Source: Arenicellales bacterium (GTDB taxonomy: Bacteria; Pseudomonadota; Gammaproteobacteria; Arenicellales; JAHEKD01). Taken from it: a DNA stretch of 64,000 nucleotides. The notes beneath the pieces are model-generated. The model did no database searches. It had not been told where the DNA came from and worked only from the letters and a program-made list of their open reading frames with translations. Below are positions 1 to 22,798 of this stretch, piece by piece. Location: contig OZ242007.1 of the NCBI GenBank assembly GCA_965204695.1, forward strand, positions 451,859 through 515,858. Reading direction: 5' to 3'. The position numbers were made by a program, and so were the translations under genes. Positions within the stretch are counted from its first letter, which is position 1; each line of letters starts with the position of its first letter.

Positions 1-19
1 CCGCGAGGGCTGGCTTGCC

Positions 20-652
20 GTGTTAGCCTTAATATTTATCGGGTTATACGCATTATGTGTGATATTTTTTGAACATCGAATAGCTCTTTTGGGTTTCATC
101 GGTTCACTCTTATGCTTGATTACCGTTTTTGCTACCTCAATGATATATGCTCAAATGAAATCCGTTCCACGTTGGAATCACTGGACCACTTGTGCATTAT
201 TCCTATTGTTGTCATTGTCAGGTGGTGCAATCTTATCTGGACAATCTCTAATAAGCTTTGCATTACTACTTTTGGCTGGTATTACCCAAATTATTGTGTG
301 GACTAACGGTGATACTCGTTTTGTTGAACGCGGCTCGACAATAGAAACAGCTACCCAACTTGGCCATATTGGCAAAGTCAGATTGTTTGAACCACCTCAC
401 ACAGGTGCCAATTATCTTCTAAAAGAAATGGTCTACCAAGTGGGGCGCAAACACGCACAAAAACTACGTAAAATATCATTTGTGTTAATGTGTGTTGTGC
501 CAGCGGCCATATTATTGTTATTCCCAACTAACTTGTTCACCATTACTCTCGCCGTTTTATTGCATCTCGGTGGCACCTTTATTTCGCGCTGGCTTTTCTT
601 TGCTGAAGCAGAGCATGTTGTTGGGCTTTATTACGGCAAACACAGCCAGTAA
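20..652 (+). CDS. DmsC/YnfH-family membrane anchor subunit of a molybdopterin oxidoreductase, probably 5'-truncated by the window edge
   Basis: The protein is polytopic and hydrophobic. Its C-terminal 'RWLFFAEAEHVVGLYYG' resembles the conserved end of DMSO-reductase anchor-subunit family proteins. The frame is open to the window edge. Confidence 0.45.
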   Translation: MLALIFIGLYALCVIFFEHRIALLGFIGSLLCLITVFATSMIYAQMKSVPRWNHWTTCALFLLLSLSGGAILSGQSLISFALLLLAGITQIIVWTNGDTRFVERGSTIETATQLGHIGKVRLFEPPHTGANYLLKEMVYQVGRKHAQKLRKISFVLMCVVPAAILLLFPTNLFTITLAVLLHLGGTFISRWLFFAEAEHVVGLYYGKHSQ

Positions 653-753
653 CAATCAAAAATCTACTGGTGCTAGAGCACCAAAACTGTCATCGGTAAC
701 GCTAAATTCAAACTTATGATCAGTAGATTGTGGGCACTGAAAAAATCAAAAAA

Positions 754-807
754 GCTGAAGTCTGATTAGTTGGCGCGGGTCCGGGAGATCCTGGTCTGCT
801 AACTTTA
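754..807 (+). pseudogene. Short relic of a CobA/CysG-type uroporphyrinogen-III C-methyltransferase N-terminus
   Basis: Bases 766-807 translate to LVGAGPGDPGLLTL, the signature N-terminal SAM-binding motif of tetrapyrrole methylases. A TGA at 763-765 sits where the conserved Tyr would be, and similarity ends after about 14 codons. The segment is locally GC-rich within an AT-rich spacer. Confidence 0.5.
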
Positions 808-902
808 CTCATATTTGAAGTGGGGAGAATATATTTTTTTCCTTACAGGACATTACCCACACTGATGTAAAAATATATGCTAAGGAAACAGGGTAATTAT
901 CT

Positions 903-1112
903 TCAATCCAATTTAACTTTAACAGGCACATTGGAATCATTAGTTGATCCATCACCAAGCTGACCTCTGCTGTTATCGCCCCAGCATCTAGCTTCCCCTG
1001 TATTTAATCTTGCACAACTGTTGTGGCCCACTAGGCTTATTGCTGTTGCGTTAGAAATACCTTGGACATTTTGGGGAATACCAAAATTATTGACAGTAGA
1101 ACCATTTCCTAA
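903..1112 (-). other. In-frame continuation of the RCC1-repeat gene beyond its TAA stop; it encodes one further RCC1 blade
   Basis: Hand translation directly after TAA (1113-1115) gives LGNGSTVNNFGIPQNVQGISNATAISLVGHNSCARLNTGEARCWGDNSRGQLGDGSTNDSNVPVKVKLD, then TGA at 903-905. The frame is the same and the repeat signature is the same. Confidence 0.8.
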
Positions 1113-2567
1113 TTACCCATCACCATTTGCACCCCAGCATTTAACAATACCTGAGTTTAGCAACGCACAAGTATGAGGATTACCAGATGCGACTGATTTA
1201 GCCGTTGATAGACCGATAACGGGAACCGGTGTACTGGAACTTACAAAAGTATTATTACCAAGTTGTCGACTATTATTATTTCCCCAGCAATTTATAGTTC
1301 CGTTCGTAAGAGAAGCACAGCTATGCGCCGTTCCTGTGCTTATGGACTTAGCTCCAGTTAATCCCGTCACCAAAACAGGTATATTCGAATGCGTGCTTGT
1401 TCCATTACCTAACCTACCGCTACCATTGTTACCCCAGCATTGGACAGCAGTACCCACTATCGCACAGGTATGTCCACCAGATGCACTAACCTCAGTAGCA
1501 GTTGTAATATTGGACACGATCTTGGGTGTATTTGAAGATGTGTTGTTTCCAATCCCGAGTTGACCAGAGCTATTTATACCCCAACATTTTATCTCTCCAT
1601 TTCTTAATACAACGCACGTATGATTGCCGCCAGCATCAATTTGAATCGCGTTGTCTATACCAACTACATTAACGGGGATATTGGATGAGGTGTTATTACC
1701 ATTTCCCAGTTGACCGTATCTATTGTAGCCCCAGCACTTTACTTGTCCATTATTAACAATCGCGCACCCATGATTATTATATGTTGATAAATCTGTAGCA
1801 TTGTTTATTCCCAAGACTTTAACGGCTGAACTGGAATCATTATTAGTTCCATTTCCTAACTGACCGAAATTATTTTTACCCCAACATTTGACAGTACCGT
1901 TAGATAATCTTGCGCATCTACCGACGCTTATTTCATCAACTGTAATATCTTCATCCAACAATGTCATGGCGAGCATGGGGATAATGCTTGAATTATTAGA
2001 ATTTAAATATTCTAATATCTTAGTTTCTGGATTTAGTGTTGTTAATGCACCGCAAGCAGGACTAGCCTTGCTACCGTTTCTAACTTCGAGATGGACATGC
2101 TCTGCTCCTGGCACTCCAGTATCTCCTTGAATCCCAAGATAATCCCCGACAGTCACTTCATCATTCACAGAAACAGCAACTTTTCTAGCATGTAAATACA
2201 AAACAGTTATATTCTTGTCGGAATCGTAAATAGCGATAGTCTTGTTACTATCAATTCCTGCGGAAATTACTTTGCCTTTCGATACAGCATAAAATTTCCT
2301 ATTTGCAGTTGCTGCTCCAGCAACATCTTTAGTTTGGATATCTAAACCAGAATGACCATTAATGTACCCATCACACATTCCGGTATTGTTAGGAGTAGCT
2401 TTCCAAATGTTGTAATCAAAATTAGCACCAATATTTGCCTTTCTGATATTTTCTATTTTTATTTTAAAAAGAGCAGATGCAATGATGGCTCTATCATTTG
2501 TATCAGCGAGAACAATATTGAAAAACCCCGACATTAGTATACCGGCTAACAACATAAGGATTTTCAT
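1113..2567 (-). CDS. Secreted M23 (LytM-type) metallopeptidase fused to an RCC1-repeat beta-propeller, ended by a premature TAA
   Basis: The N-terminal signal peptide is MKILMLLAGILMSGFFNIVLA. The M23 motifs HSGLD (HxxxD) and EHVHLEV (HxH) are present. About seven repeats of the RCC1 pattern 'CWG.N..GQLG.G' follow. Confidence 0.8.
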   Translation of the reverse strand: MKILMLLAGILMSGFFNIVLADTNDRAIIASALFKIKIENIRKANIGANFDYNIWKATPNNTGMCDGYINGHSGLDIQTKDVAGAATANRKFYAVSKGKVISAGIDSNKTIAIYDSDKNITVLYLHARKVAVSVNDEVTVGDYLGIQGDTGVPGAEHVHLEVRNGSKASPACGALTTLNPETKILEYLNSNNSSIIPMLAMTLLDEDITVDEISVGRCARLSNGTVKCWGKNNFGQLGNGTNNDSSSAVKVLGINNATDLSTYNNHGCAIVNNGQVKCWGYNRYGQLGNGNNTSSNIPVNVVGIDNAIQIDAGGNHTCVVLRNGEIKCWGINSSGQLGIGNNTSSNTPKIVSNITTATEVSASGGHTCAIVGTAVQCWGNNGSGRLGNGTSTHSNIPVLVTGLTGAKSISTGTAHSCASLTNGTINCWGNNNSRQLGNNTFVSSSTPVPVIGLSTAKSVASGNPHTCALLNSGIVKCWGANGDG

Positions 2568-2809
2568 CTTCGTAACCGCCCCTTAATATCTGTATTTAAC
2601 TGTCTACTTTTATAAAGTGTAATAGATTTGTCCTTGAAACATCAGTAATTTTTACTATTGATAGTTTTGACACCCCTTTCAATGTCACCAGAACTTTACT
2701 TTGGAGTGATTCCTTTGCTTCAAGTCGTATTGTTTCTTTTGTGAGTAGTGATATGCACCACTAATGGTTTACCAACGACTAGGCACAATTCTCGATCCGG
2801 TTAAGGCAC

Positions 2810-3391
2810 TCAAATAGATTTAGTGCTTTTTTGGGGAATCGTTAAAGAAAAAGGTTTTTCAATATAGATAAATAAAAATGTTGATGAGATTAAAGTAACT
2901 GCAAATGTCAATGGCAGTGCTACCCAAAACAGCCAATCATCAGCATTGGCGGGTGGACATATGATAGACAACATTAAGAATATAAATTTTAATGTTAGAC
3001 CATGGATAAGATAATAAGAATAACTCATGTTTCCTAACCACCTGATCGGTTTGAATTCAAACAATTTTTTGGTCAACCCATCAGATAAAAAGCAGTCTGT
3101 ACAAAATACAAAAAATAGCACATATAGCAAGACATATCGCCAGAAGTTATGCGCTTCAAAAACGTTTAATAGTATGACTAAGATAATTGCTATACATAAT
3201 GCAGCAAGTCCAATTGGCGGCATTTTGTACATTTTTTTATTTTCTGTAAATTCAAAGACTAAGATGCCTGAGAGAAACATTAATAAACGAATGTGACTGC
3301 CATAAATTGAAAAATAGATAAAAAACACTAAAGAGATGCAAGAAAACAGGGCAAAACGCATCTCCCATTTCCATGATCTCAATTTAAACAA
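2810..3391 (-). CDS. Acyltransferase family 3 (OafA/YrhL-like O-acyltransferase), C-terminal fragment
   Basis: The product is a multi-TM hydrophobic protein. Its frame continues upstream as 'VFYYLLIPVAIGLFKL', which completes the acyltransferase_3 'W(S/T)LS.E..FY' motif begun in ORF 3400-3912. Confidence 0.6.
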   Translation of the reverse strand: MFKLRSWKWEMRFALFSCISLVFFIYFSIYGSHIRLLMFLSGILVFEFTENKKMYKMPPIGLAALCIAIILVILLNVFEAHNFWRYVLLYVLFFVFCTDCFLSDGLTKKLFEFKPIRWLGNMSYSYYLIHGLTLKFIFLMLSIICPPANADDWLFWVALPLTFAVTLISSTFLFIYIEKPFSLTIPQKSTKSI

Positions 3392-3399
3392 ACCTATGG

Positions 3400-3912
3400 C
3401 TACAGGAATAAGAAGATAATAAAAAACTCATAACTCAATGTCCATGCCACTGTAATTATCGCCTTGATGTCAAATAATCCAGGCAGCAACAAATAATTCT
3501 GTAAAATATAAATTAGCCCATCTAAGCCATCTGGAATTTTCGATTCAGCGGGAAAAATAAACGATAACAGTAGATAAATAGCAAATACAGCCGTAAAGGT
3601 CGGATAAATACGCTGAATTCGTCTTTTAATATAAAAATGATAATTCTGTGACTTCCTTATCAGAATTCCATAAATCAAATAGCCACTCAATACGAAGAAT
3701 AAGTCAACACCAATTTTCCCAACATTTGCGAACTGATTTAAGATCATCTTTGTCACAGAGGCATCACTGATCCAAGGCTCAACCAATGATGCGAAATGGA
3801 CTAAAAATACAAGGAATACTGCAAAGCCCCGAATTCCCTCCATGGACAATATGTTTTGTTTGTCAGCACGGGATATTTCAAATGCTTGTTTTAACCATGA
3901 TGCCCGATTCAT
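3400..3912 (-). CDS. Acyltransferase family 3, N-terminal fragment, separated from its C-terminal part by a frameshift in an A6/T6 run
   Basis: 'EGIRGFAVFLVFLVHF' and 'VDLFFVLSGYLI' are typical acyltransferase_3 N-terminal motifs. The ORF ends inside 'WTLSYEFF' at the homopolymer 3421-3426. Confidence 0.65.
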   Translation of the reverse strand: MNRASWLKQAFEISRADKQNILSMEGIRGFAVFLVFLVHFASLVEPWISDASVTKMILNQFANVGKIGVDLFFVLSGYLIYGILIRKSQNYHFYIKRRIQRIYPTFTAVFAIYLLLSFIFPAESKIPDGLDGLIYILQNYLLLPGLFDIKAIITVAWTLSYEFFIIFLFL

Positions 3913-4352
3913 TTTAAGCCGCTTGTTCTAATTCAACTTCAAGTTTATACGGCAACAATGTTTCTATTTGTTCAGTTGGCAATGACCCTGTGCCGAGATT
4001 CACGGTTTGAATATTATCATATCAACCCTCTGAAAGACCTACAAATAAAGGGGTTGATCGATATTTAATCCGCTTTTCAGCGACGGTTTAAAGGCTGGAG
4101 CAGCTGTAGTAAGGTGGGATAGTATGCCCCTGAACCAGAGTTAACTCATATCCGTCTTCAGCCATTGGGCCTGCTGAGCATTGAGTTGAACATCATACCT
4201 ATCAGCAAATGATGCGGCCAATTAAACCGCTCTTTCTCTATACGATTCATCAGTAATATGAACCCATTGCCATCACAGACTACCAACTTAATAATTGTTC
4301 AGAGTAAGAGTTTTATGCATAACATACTAATCTGAAGATAGTGGACAGAGTG

Positions 4353-8789: not shown

Positions 8790-9066
8790 TTTACATCTCC
8801 CAATGTCAAAAAAACTAACCCACGTAATGTGTTTGACACAATGGTGTGGCACTTTCCGCACCGCCATCGAGGCAGATGTCCCTGGTTTTATATCACTCCG
8901 TACAAACCTGAGCGGCGAGGCATTTGGCAGGTCTCCTGACTTACGATTTTAGTACGACTTAACCTTCCCGGTTTCCCAGTGGTATTTCAAAGTCACACAA
9001 TCGGTTACAGTTGCGGGGACAGTCACGGAATTACACCGTATTCCCTATTAATCTTACGAACCAAAT
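8790..9066 (-). promoter_or_regulatory. Cobalamin (AdoCbl) riboswitch leader of the btuB-like operon
   Basis: The minus strand reads GGTTCG..AATAGGGAATACGGTGTAATTCCGTGACTGTCCCCGCAACTGTAACCG...ATACCACTGGGAAACCGGGAAGG...AGTCAGGAGACCTGCC. The last stretch is the B12 box, at 8926-8940 on the plus strand. A GGGAGA Shine-Dalgarno lies just before the ATG at 8787. Confidence 0.9.
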
Positions 9067-9148
9067 GTGTGTGTAGAGTAACGAAATTATTGTTTATTTG
9101 CAATAATTCAGATGCTTTTTAATGGCTCTAAAACTAATGATAAAACAG

Positions 9149-9887: not shown

Positions 9888-9963
9888 TGGCGTCCCCACG
9901 GGGATTCGAACCCCGGTTGCCGCCGTGAAAGGGCGGTGTCCTAGGCCTCTAGACGATGGGGAC
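9888..9963 (-). tRNA. tRNA-Glu (UUC)
   Basis: The reverse complement is GTCCCCATCGTCTAGAGGCCTAGGACACCGCCCTTTCACGGCGGCAACCGGGGTTCGAATCCCCGTGGGGACGCCA. This is nearly identical to enterobacterial tRNA-Glu, and the CCA is encoded. Confidence 0.95.
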
Positions 9964-10164: not shown

Positions 10165-10240
<76 letters not shown>

Positions 10241-20337: not shown

Positions 20338-21417
20338 TTATGGCGGGAAATCTAACCCACCGATAATTACAGGTACAGGTACACTCTGATCCTCGGAAGG
20401 AAATAGCTGGCGATAAAGATTATGTCCCCAGCATTTAACATTGCTTGTGTCATCTAAAATACAGTTGTGGTTTATGCCAGCAGAGGCCGCCGCTGAGTGA
20501 GTTAGACTTTTAACATCCACGGGTAAATTTGAGTCATCAAAAGTGTCATTGCCTAACTGCCCAAATTCGTTGTCACCCCAACATTTGACATCTCTAAGTC
20601 GCGAAGATGGCTCTCCTATTACCGCACAGCTATGAAAACCACCCATAAAAACCTTTATGACTCTTTGGAAAGTTGTTAAATCTAAATTGCGAACGTTAAT
20701 TGGCCGATGGCTATTGACATTGGTACCGTTACCCAATTGGCCTTGCAAATTGTATCCCCAACATAAAACCGGATTAGAATTACCACTTCTTGATGCACAG
20801 GTGTGATAAAAACCTGCTGAAGCCGTTCTCACGTCAACAAGCACTCCGCCCAGCTTAATTGGTCTGGTTGACATTCTGGTAGTGTTATTGCCTAGCTGAC
20901 CAAATAAATTTCCTCCCCAGCAAGAAATTTGGCCTAGTGCAGTAACCTCACTCACATTAACACCGCAAGTATGAAAACTTCCTGTGGTTATATCTGTAAA
21001 ACGGTCCGCAACGCTTGTTCCAACAACTACAGGCACATTTGAATTTTCAGTTGTACCATCTCCTAACTGGCCAGAGCTGTTAACACCCCAGCATTTAGCT
21101 CTGCGATCCGATTCTACGACACAGGTATGAAAATATTTTGAATCAATGGCTATCGCATCATCAATACCAACAGCTTTAACTGGCAACTCTGAGTCTTCGG
21201 TTGTTCCGTCTCCAAGCTGGCCTAAATGATTATTCCCCCAACATTCAACCGTTCGATCAAACAAAATCGCACATTGATGATAACGCCCTACTGCAATAGC
21301 TGTAGCAAATGGAAGATTGGCAACAGTTTTGGGGGAACCGTCTAAATTTGACACCGGGATGCCGCCAAGCTCACTAACGTGTTTCCCCCAACATTTAACT
21401 TTGCCATTAGAAAGCAA
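20338..21417 (-). CDS. RCC1-repeat beta-propeller protein (repeat-bearing part of a frameshifted gene)
   Basis: About seven repeats of 'CWG.N..GQLG.GT' are present. The frame is open upstream to 21441 (..SGHSNNCALLSNGKVKCWG). Confidence 0.8.
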   Translation of the reverse strand: MLSNGKVKCWGKHVSELGGIPVSNLDGSPKTVANLPFATAIAVGRYHQCAILFDRTVECWGNNHLGQLGDGTTEDSELPVKAVGIDDAIAIDSKYFHTCVVESDRRAKCWGVNSSGQLGDGTTENSNVPVVVGTSVADRFTDITTGSFHTCGVNVSEVTALGQISCWGGNLFGQLGNNTTRMSTRPIKLGGVLVDVRTASAGFYHTCASRSGNSNPVLCWGYNLQGQLGNGTNVNSHRPINVRNLDLTTFQRVIKVFMGGFHSCAVIGEPSSRLRDVKCWGDNEFGQLGNDTFDDSNLPVDVKSLTHSAAASAGINHNCILDDTSNVKCWGHNLYRQLFPSEDQSVPVPVIIGGLDFPP

Positions 21418-21602
21418 GGCACAGTTGTTAGAATGACCGCTTTAATATCAATAACTATGACATTTTCCTGTTCATCAAATAGCAACAAAGAAAGAATCGG
21501 AACGATACTTGATTGATTAGCGCTAACACTGAGGTTAAAGTTCATTGCCACAGTGATAATGATTGGAATTAACTTTGTCAGTAAATTTTTCAGTACCACC
21601 AT
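21342..21602 (-). CDS. Signal-peptide-bearing N-terminal fragment of the same RCC1-repeat gene, in a different frame
   Basis: The hydrophobic leader is MVVLKNLLTKLIPIIITVAMNFNLSVSA. The fragment reads ..VIVIDIKA and then leaves the RCC1 frame at about 21436-21441. Adding one G restores 'IDIKAGHSNNCALL'. Confidence 0.65.
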   Translation of the reverse strand: MVVLKNLLTKLIPIIITVAMNFNLSVSANQSSIVPILSLLLFDEQENVIVIDIKAVILTTVPCFLMAKLNVGGNTLVSLAASRCQI

Positions 21603-22384: not shown

Positions 22385-22798
22385 ATGAATACTATTTCGA
22401 ATGCTTTAAAAGAAATCATTCAAGGCAACCCACTTTTTGAATTCGGCTTTCAAAATCAATTATTCAATCAAGCTCAATTCGCCCGTTATCTTAACCCTTT
22501 GATCAAAGCACGGCTGCAAAAAGAAGTCAGTGATAACGCGATCATGATGAATCTGTCACGCCTGCGTGAAAGCCTGATCAATAGCAATTTGGATGTTACC
22601 CAATACCGTATTGAAAAATTAACGTTGTTTTCTAAATTGGCAAAGTTTACTTATGCCAGAACGGATAAAACACTGCGGGACCTAGCTGTACTACATAGTT
22701 ATGTATCAGTCAAAAAAGGTTTTTTTCATATGTGTGATTGTGTAAACGAAATTACCGTATTTATTAATTCAAGCGATCAACCTAAATTAAAAAAATAG
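22385..22798 (+). CDS. Hypothetical protein, N-terminal part of a gene split at an A7 run
   Basis: The ORF ends in ..QPKLKK* within AAAAAAA (22789-22795). The adjacent frame continues without a stop into ORF 22882-23064. Confidence 0.5.
   Translation: MNTISNALKEIIQGNPLFEFGFQNQLFNQAQFARYLNPLIKARLQKEVSDNAIMMNLSRLRESLINSNLDVTQYRIEKLTLFSKLAKFTYARTDKTLRDLAVLHSYVSVKKGFFHMCDCVNEITVFINSSDQPKLKK

Follow-up and report, generated by a model that had tools for sequence, protein, structure and literature searches.

A gene for an exported M23 peptidase joined to an RCC1-type propeller carries an in-frame TAA that is probably a recent and real nonsense mutation, which would make the gene a young pseudogene within a decaying, dispensable islet of acquired DNA. 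The gene lies on the minus strand of the window, the whole stretch of 64,000 nucleotides that was analyzed (G000:C1:451859-515858), on an effectively circular contig that holds 5.05 Mb of a 5.17-Mb genome of 97% completeness. Ancestrally, it would have encoded an exported protein of 554 aa composed of a Sec signal peptide, a LytM/lysostaphin-type M23 zinc endopeptidase, a linker and a seven-bladed RCC1-type propeller, and it would have arrived together with an acyltransferase gene on a foreign insert of 3.5 kb, in place of most of cobA. One substitution, CAA to TAA being the likeliest, would have put a stop into the sixth repeat at its Gln; translation would then halt after 23 of the 28 propeller strands, leaving a ring unable to close, and the product would either be degraded or persist as an M23 domain whose tail is misfolded. 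The results below show the stop, a tail that is homologous and coding in character, a model with seven blades, the borders of the islet and the lesions next to the gene. From them we infer the enzymatic activity, the targeting role of the propeller and the loss of function, and also that the stop is real and not an error of the consensus.

The in-frame stop and the probable original codon

The open reading frame (ORF) of the M23-RCC1 gene runs on the minus strand from an ATG at 2567 to 1116 and encodes 484 aa, with its final residues VKCWGANGDG followed directly by a TAA at 1115..1113. In the same frame, 69 sense codons follow the TAA (1112..906, LGNGSTVNNF...CWGDNSRGQLGDGSTNDSNVPVKVKLD) and are closed by a TGA at 905..903, this stretch translating as LGNGSTVNNFGIPQNVQGISNATAISLVGHNSCARLNTGEARCWGDNSRGQLGDGSTNDSNVPVKVKLD, and the product with the TAA read through is 554 aa long. 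The coordinates and translations of the ORF, the TAA, the 69-codon tail and the TGA given in the initial annotation proved exact when re-read from the sequence, and its observation of an in-frame stop with an open tail is confirmed. From ATG to TGA the gene spans 1.66 kb and is otherwise perfect, the TAA at 1113-1115 being its one lesion, which is of the substitution type with no homopolymer at the site. No second lesion was found in the 69 downstream codons, and the event therefore appears to be recent. The TGA at 903..905, which lies 24 aa past the seventh CWG motif, the modal tail length among 119 RCC1 relatives, was taken as the original gene stop. No intrinsic terminator was found directly past the TGA at 903, the nearest minus-strand terminator-like site being located at 684-667.

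The tail (906..1112, minus strand), which comprises the last strand of repeat 6, repeat 7 and a C-terminal tail, was recognizable as RCC1 sequence on its own, with its 69 aa matching the Pfam families RCC1 (E 3.6e-10, 40.7 bits), RCC1_2 (1.4e-7) and WD40_RLD (4.6e-9). Using a hexamer coding model trained on 1,251 long ORFs of the same genome, the tail scored 0.38 bits per codon, which lies at the 21st percentile among genuine coding windows of equal length and exceeds 3,068 of 3,068 windows taken from non-coding frames; the five other frames of the region scored between −0.05 and −2.7. These scores indicate that the tail is either former or still-current coding sequence. The chance of 69 open codons, given the base composition, is ~1.4%. 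The downstream codons had initially been described as open and repeat-like, with which both the Pfam match and the coding score agree.

With a residue in place of the stop, seven CWG motifs are found at residues 228, 278, 328, 377, 427, 477 and 528, and the translation and repeat alignment place the TAA (residue 485) immediately after the Gly in motif 6, that is, at the Gln position of the sixth GQLG motif. Four of the other six repeats read GQLG, one reads GRLG (repeat 4) and one RQLG..N (repeat 5), so that Gln occupies the stop-equivalent position in five of them. The earlier claim that every other repeat has the form CWG.N..GQLG.G thus holds for four of the six and fails for repeats 4 and 5. 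Its placing of the TAA at an expected Gln was borne out by 1,640 repeats from the 119 RCC1 relatives, in which Gln makes up 78.7% of the residues at this position, against 9.0% for Glu, 1.3% for Lys, 1.1% for Leu, 0.6% for Ser and 0.1% for Tyr; among residues whose codons are one base from TAA, the share of Gln is ~87%. At the DNA level, the plus-strand TTA (1113-1115) aligns within repeat family D1 with TTG and CTG (Gln) and CCT (Arg) of other repeats. Because Gln is present in ~79% of the 1,640 repeats, CAA→TAA, a transition, is judged from these alignments to be the likeliest original change.

No orthologue was found among 40 relatives including three same-genus genomes, in species-representative genomes, among 5.8 billion proteins queried with either the whole protein or its M23 part, or in metagenome contigs scanned for the exact pattern with the first base of the stop codon left free. 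These searches yielded paralogues only, at 43-47% identity. Since neither an orthologue nor a second assembly exists in the collections searched, the sense codon was never directly observed.

An open, gene-like tail would also be seen if full-length protein were made by decoding the TAA, whether through programmed read-through or through reassignment of the stop codon. Nevertheless, TAA is the commonest stop of this genome, ending 1,714 of its 3,337 ORFs of at least 200 aa, and recoding of TAA was rejected on this usage. The TAA is also followed by a T, and UAAU is the strongest termination context in E. coli. No RNA element was found near the TAA, and decoding of this stop is scarcely credible.

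Domain architecture and effect of the truncation

The start codon and a Sec-type signal peptide are located at 2505..2567 (minus strand), as seen in the translation and in an N-terminal helix of the structural model, with a putative cleavage site at MKILMLLAGILMSGFFNIVLA|DT. Next to it lies the M23/LytM metallopeptidase module (residues ~23-190; 1998..2501, minus strand), which matches Peptidase_M23 (PF01551) at residues 72-167 and, at 45.8 bits, exceeds the curated cut-off of 28.7. Its H72-x3-D76, H126 and H157-x-H159 are intact, and the same five residues (H72, D76, H126, H157, H159) show no variation among 15 relatives. Searching the PDB with a profile built from the module retrieved LytM at E 8e-11, and lysostaphin was matched as well. 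When the whole protein was folded, the M23 part had a pLDDT of ~30 on a shallow alignment, and the module was therefore folded separately; alone, its core reached a pLDDT of ~90, and Foldseek aligned this model with LytM and lysostaphin at E 5e-9 and a target TM of ~0.7. By analogy with lysostaphin and its SH3b domain, the product would be a secreted peptidoglycan endopeptidase with the propeller as its binding module, the M23 domain presumably cutting peptidoglycan cross-links and the propeller presumably binding or targeting.

Relatives of the M23 module are metagenome proteins of 45-57% identity, including proteins from a 'Thiotrichaceae bacterium' MAG and a Candidatus Albibeggiatoa psychrophila MAG, and it is only through these best matches of the module that the host may be called 'Beggiatoaceae-like'. 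In these relatives the module is combined with SLH, FN3, dockerin, ricin, NlpC/P60-like or DUF2690 domains, and short members of 282-374 aa have other or small tails. A conserved N-terminal segment, 'RAIIASxLFxIPxxxID...NYxYNPW', marks the subfamily (P0122-P0135, L018), one member of which, from Ca. Albibeggiatoa, exceeds 1,275 aa. The combination of M23 with RCC1 was found in none of 16 relatives of the M23 subfamily and in none of the best 120 RCC1 matches. The fusion, an unusual recombination of known domains, thus appears to be unique in the collections searched.

Between the M23 and RCC1 parts of the 2567..903 gene sits a linker motif, IIPMLAMTLLDED (1947..1985, minus strand), of the pattern 'I-V-P-x-L-x-x-L-L-L'. 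Its equivalents are IVPILSLLLFDE in a second RCC1 gene of the window, ILPIISTLLLDG in an intact paralogue elsewhere in the genome (locus L002) and IVPVLSLLLLSG in the same-genus genome G002, and all three proteins consist of a signal peptide, this linker and RCC1 repeats, with no M23 module. As the linker is common to these plain paralogues, the gene looks like an M23 module inserted ahead of a linker-RCC1 module. It is in this ancestral architecture, in which an M23 module shuffled among many partner domains of Beggiatoaceae-like bacteria would have acquired a propeller, that the sole wider interest of the locus would lie.

RCC1 repeats 1 to 6, corresponding to the first 23 propeller strands (E209-E479 in the model), lie within the ORF (1116..1943, minus strand), and residues 213-484 score 142 bits with PF00415 (RCC1), 143 bits with PF13540 (RCC1_2) and 166 bits with PF25390 (WD40_RLD). 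The read-through product was folded with AlphaFold2 on an alignment of 47 sequences, giving a propeller at residues 209-552 with a pLDDT of 92-98, except that the last partial block of 10 residues averages 82; the residues after the stop have values of 82-97. Its 28 strands, four in each of seven repeats, include E495-E550 from the tail, and the stop residue 485 falls between strand 23 (E475-479) and strand 24 (E495-500), which leaves 5 of the 28 strands untranslated. The ORF as encoded therefore has six motifs and 23 strands and falls short of a complete seven-bladed propeller, seven motifs and 28 strands being obtained only when the TAA is read through. The initial statement that the last blade is cut off was right as to the truncation, and according to the model it slightly understates the loss. 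Foldseek showed that the read-through model spans the whole of seven-bladed UVR8 (target TM 0.86-0.90, rmsd 1.5-2.5 Å, ~362 columns) and also matches the RLDs of HERC2 and HERC1, RPGR and RCC1, with target TM of 0.75-0.90 for UVR8, HERC2, RPGR and RCC1, and more distantly the bacterial BLIP-II.

Motif counts among the 119 RCC1 relatives cluster at 14, that is, two propellers of seven. Tails past the last motif measure 24-25 or 33-37 aa in these proteins and are shorter than 19 aa in only one of the 119; the read-through product has 24 aa at this place and the truncated form 5 aa. The genome contains two other RCC1 genes with seven motifs each. One of them, the intact 369-aa L002 paralogue (L002 1150..2259, plus strand; G000:C1:2556490-2557599), also ends 5 aa past its seventh CWG motif, so that a short tail alone would not seem fatal, but as this paralogue keeps seven motifs, six would not appear to be the norm. 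The other lies in the window (20338-21602, minus strand), where what looks like a −1 frameshift at GCGG (plus strand, ~21437-21440) cuts the repeats off from the signal peptide and linker; the two RCC1 genes of the window are thus both broken, with the third copy intact.

These comparisons bear on whether, with the stop real, the 484-aa product could be a working form in which M23 acts without a closed propeller, the truncation being tolerated or even selected. The signal peptide and the M23 domain are complete in the 484-aa form, with all zinc and catalytic residues in place, and some function may have survived; relatives of 282-374 aa manage with other or small tails, and M23 catalytic domains, such as that of lysostaphin, are active without their targeting domain. 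On the other hand, judging from the model, the incomplete propeller of ~275 residues in the 484-aa form would likely misfold and be attacked by periplasmic proteases, just one of the 119 relatives ends at an equivalent point, and the deaths of the neighboring gene and of cobA (see below) point to decay and not to adaptation. A functional short form is therefore improbable. The initial annotation had allowed for a recent lesion, a sequencing error or a tolerated truncation; its interpretation is supported, and among these options the context favors a real lesion.

Compared with known enzymes, the protein resembles M23 endopeptidases of the LytM/lysostaphin type (PDB 2B0P, 4ZYB, 4LXC) in its export, its PF01551 match, its HxxxD and HxH ligands with the catalytic His, its predicted fold and its modular plan of a catalytic domain with a separate non-catalytic C-terminal domain. 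It differs from them in that the C-terminal domain is an RCC1 propeller instead of SH3b, LysM or coiled-coil, and in that the M23 module belongs to a distinct subfamily with a 'RAIIASxLFxIP' helix, so far represented by Beggiatoaceae/Thiotrichaceae-like metagenome proteins. With RCC1-like repeat propellers (Stevens & Paoli 2008, as cited in PMC9218822), among them RCC1 (1A12), UVR8 (4DNW), the HERC2 RLD and BLIP-II (1JTD), the read-through product shares seven repeats of ~50 aa and the CWG..GQLG signature, and with BLIP-II it further shares being a secreted bacterial protein. In contrast to these propellers, the 484-aa product has six motifs and 23 strands and is fused to a peptidase, and GEF activity or a specific ligand is without support. 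Legionella LegG1/PieG (Swart et al. 2020, as cited in bioRxiv 10.1101/2023.11.21.568195) are likewise bacterial RCC1-repeat proteins, described as substrates of type IV secretion with activity within eukaryotic cells. Unlike those effectors, the protein here combines a classical Sec signal peptide with a cell-wall hydrolase domain and is encoded in a sulfur-bacterium-like genome, and nothing suggests an injected effector.

A genome-specific islet in place of cobA

The M23-RCC1 gene and a split acyltransferase_3 gene lie in a genome-specific islet of 3.5 kb (~808-4339), delimited by comparing its flanks with two same-genus genomes. Window positions 2-806 and those from 4340 onward match G003, and positions 2-641 and those from 4396 onward match G001, at 70-78% identity, while the gap between the matched blocks measures ~0.8 kb in G003 and ~2 kb in G001. 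In both genomes this interval contains an intact gene for a 252-aa methyltransferase of the CobA/CysG type. In the window, tblastn with the G003 CobA detected only a relic of 23 codons interrupted by an in-frame stop (EKIKKAEV*LVGAGPGDPGLLTL; 739..807, plus strand), which indicates that the ~3.5 kb at 808-4339 replaced cobA. A second cobA-like copy of 62% identity is located at G000:C1:4164832-4165575. Part of the islet has a GC content of 33-37%, and no flanking repeats or mobile-element ends of the islet were found. A tRNA fragment or att site at ~770-800 was considered and rejected, ARAGORN being negative and the sequence being that of the N-terminal cobA relic.

The acyltransferase_3 gene (2810..3912, minus strand) is split into two ORFs, 3912..3400 and 3391..2810, in different frames, whose products of 170 aa and 193 aa match positions 2-138 and 144-324 of the PF01757 profile, respectively. 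The junction sequence places the break at or close to a run of six T (GAGTTTTTTATT; a run of A at 3421-3426 on the plus strand). The intact L002 RCC1 paralogue also adjoins a divergent acyltransferase_3 gene (L002 1-480, minus strand), a recurrence of the islet's gene pairing that could be coincidental.

Thus, the M23-RCC1 gene has the marks of ordinary nonsense pseudogenes in acquired genes, namely a single in-frame stop, downstream homology, a genome-specific islet and inactivated neighbors, and no essential difference from them was seen, only the domain combination being unusual. The islet destroyed cobA, of which a second copy exists elsewhere, and both of its cargo genes have since been inactivated. 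The case is of little importance by itself, though as a young pseudogene it is clean and its limits are well defined. It is of use for annotation, since what public protein sets contain as the 484-aa ORF is a truncated product that should be flagged as a pseudogene or as having an 'internal stop'.

Farther along the window, a cobalamin riboswitch (8909-9080, minus strand, 114.6 bits) lies upstream of btu-like transport genes, which fits a B12-related neighborhood (btuCD, cobA), and two tRNA genes are found at 9891-9963 and 10168-10240 (both minus strand).

Assembly quality and lesion load

A stop produced by a substitution error in the consensus or assembly, or a stop present as one allele in a heterogeneous and possibly polyploid population, would mean that the TAA is not a fixed sequence and that an intact 554-aa gene exists. 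The gene itself looks as this would predict, with a single lesion and a perfectly preserved tail, since a single consensus error would look alike. The sample is also a mixed community with a contig (C6) from a second, related organism, and other breaks in the genome occur at homopolymers (the A6/T6 run at 3421-3426 and a 7-base run near 22796) and could be long-read artefacts. To weigh these points, the lesion load of the whole genome serves as the reference.

Seventy-nine ORFs of at least 1,000 aa are intact in the genome, the longest having 3,918 aa, whereas at the density of ~5 lesions per 23 kb found in the first 23 kb of the window, if genome-wide, roughly half of the genes of that size would be expected to be broken. 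A scan for nonsense-type lesions, defined as a stop with coding-like sequence immediately after it and no start codon nearby, returned ~26 candidates among 4,024 ORFs, including the TAA of the M23-RCC1 gene, and a strict frameshift scan returned 14 candidates among 3,851 ORFs, mostly outside long homopolymers. So few candidates, together with the 79 long ORFs, indicate an assembly that is not full of errors and a genome with an ordinary load of pseudogenes. The lesions near the M23-RCC1 gene form a local cluster in accessory DNA, which a uniform sequencing error fails to explain given an assembly that is sound overall. This cluster falls in an islet where selection is independently seen to be relaxed, from the cobA relic and the split acyltransferase gene, and the TAA is a substitution outside homopolymers. 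Such a substitution within a local lesion cluster favors a real mutation, and we regard a consensus error or a non-fixed allele as possible but unlikely.

Taken separately, the reading in which the TAA is one allele of a heterogeneous or polyploid population, with an intact, propeller-targeted, secreted lytic M23–RCC1 peptidase still being made, is doubtful. If it were true, the peptidase might serve inter-bacterial antagonism or the remodelling of sheath and cell wall in filamentous sulfur bacteria. A recent and real nonsense mutation is the account that we prefer.

The 31-kb contig C6 is collinear with C1:5023855-5047595 and C1:2507-6554, though at only ~80% identity. Because C6 joins both ends of C1, C1 is effectively circular, and the low identity indicates a related second organism in the bin (3.3% contamination), which shows that the sample is a community; for the same reason, C6 was ruled out as a second, redundant assembly from which consensus error could have been estimated.

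Two further lesion candidates emerged from the scans, one of frameshift type and one that is probably a second TAA-type pseudogene. The frameshift candidate at ~22796 (plus strand; G000:C1:474654) consists of a 137-aa ORF with a 7-base homopolymer at the junction, past which the coding signal shifts to a different frame. At G000:C1:3077258-3077260, an in-frame TAA has a 309-aa ORF before it and 679 coding-like codons after it, with no start nearby.
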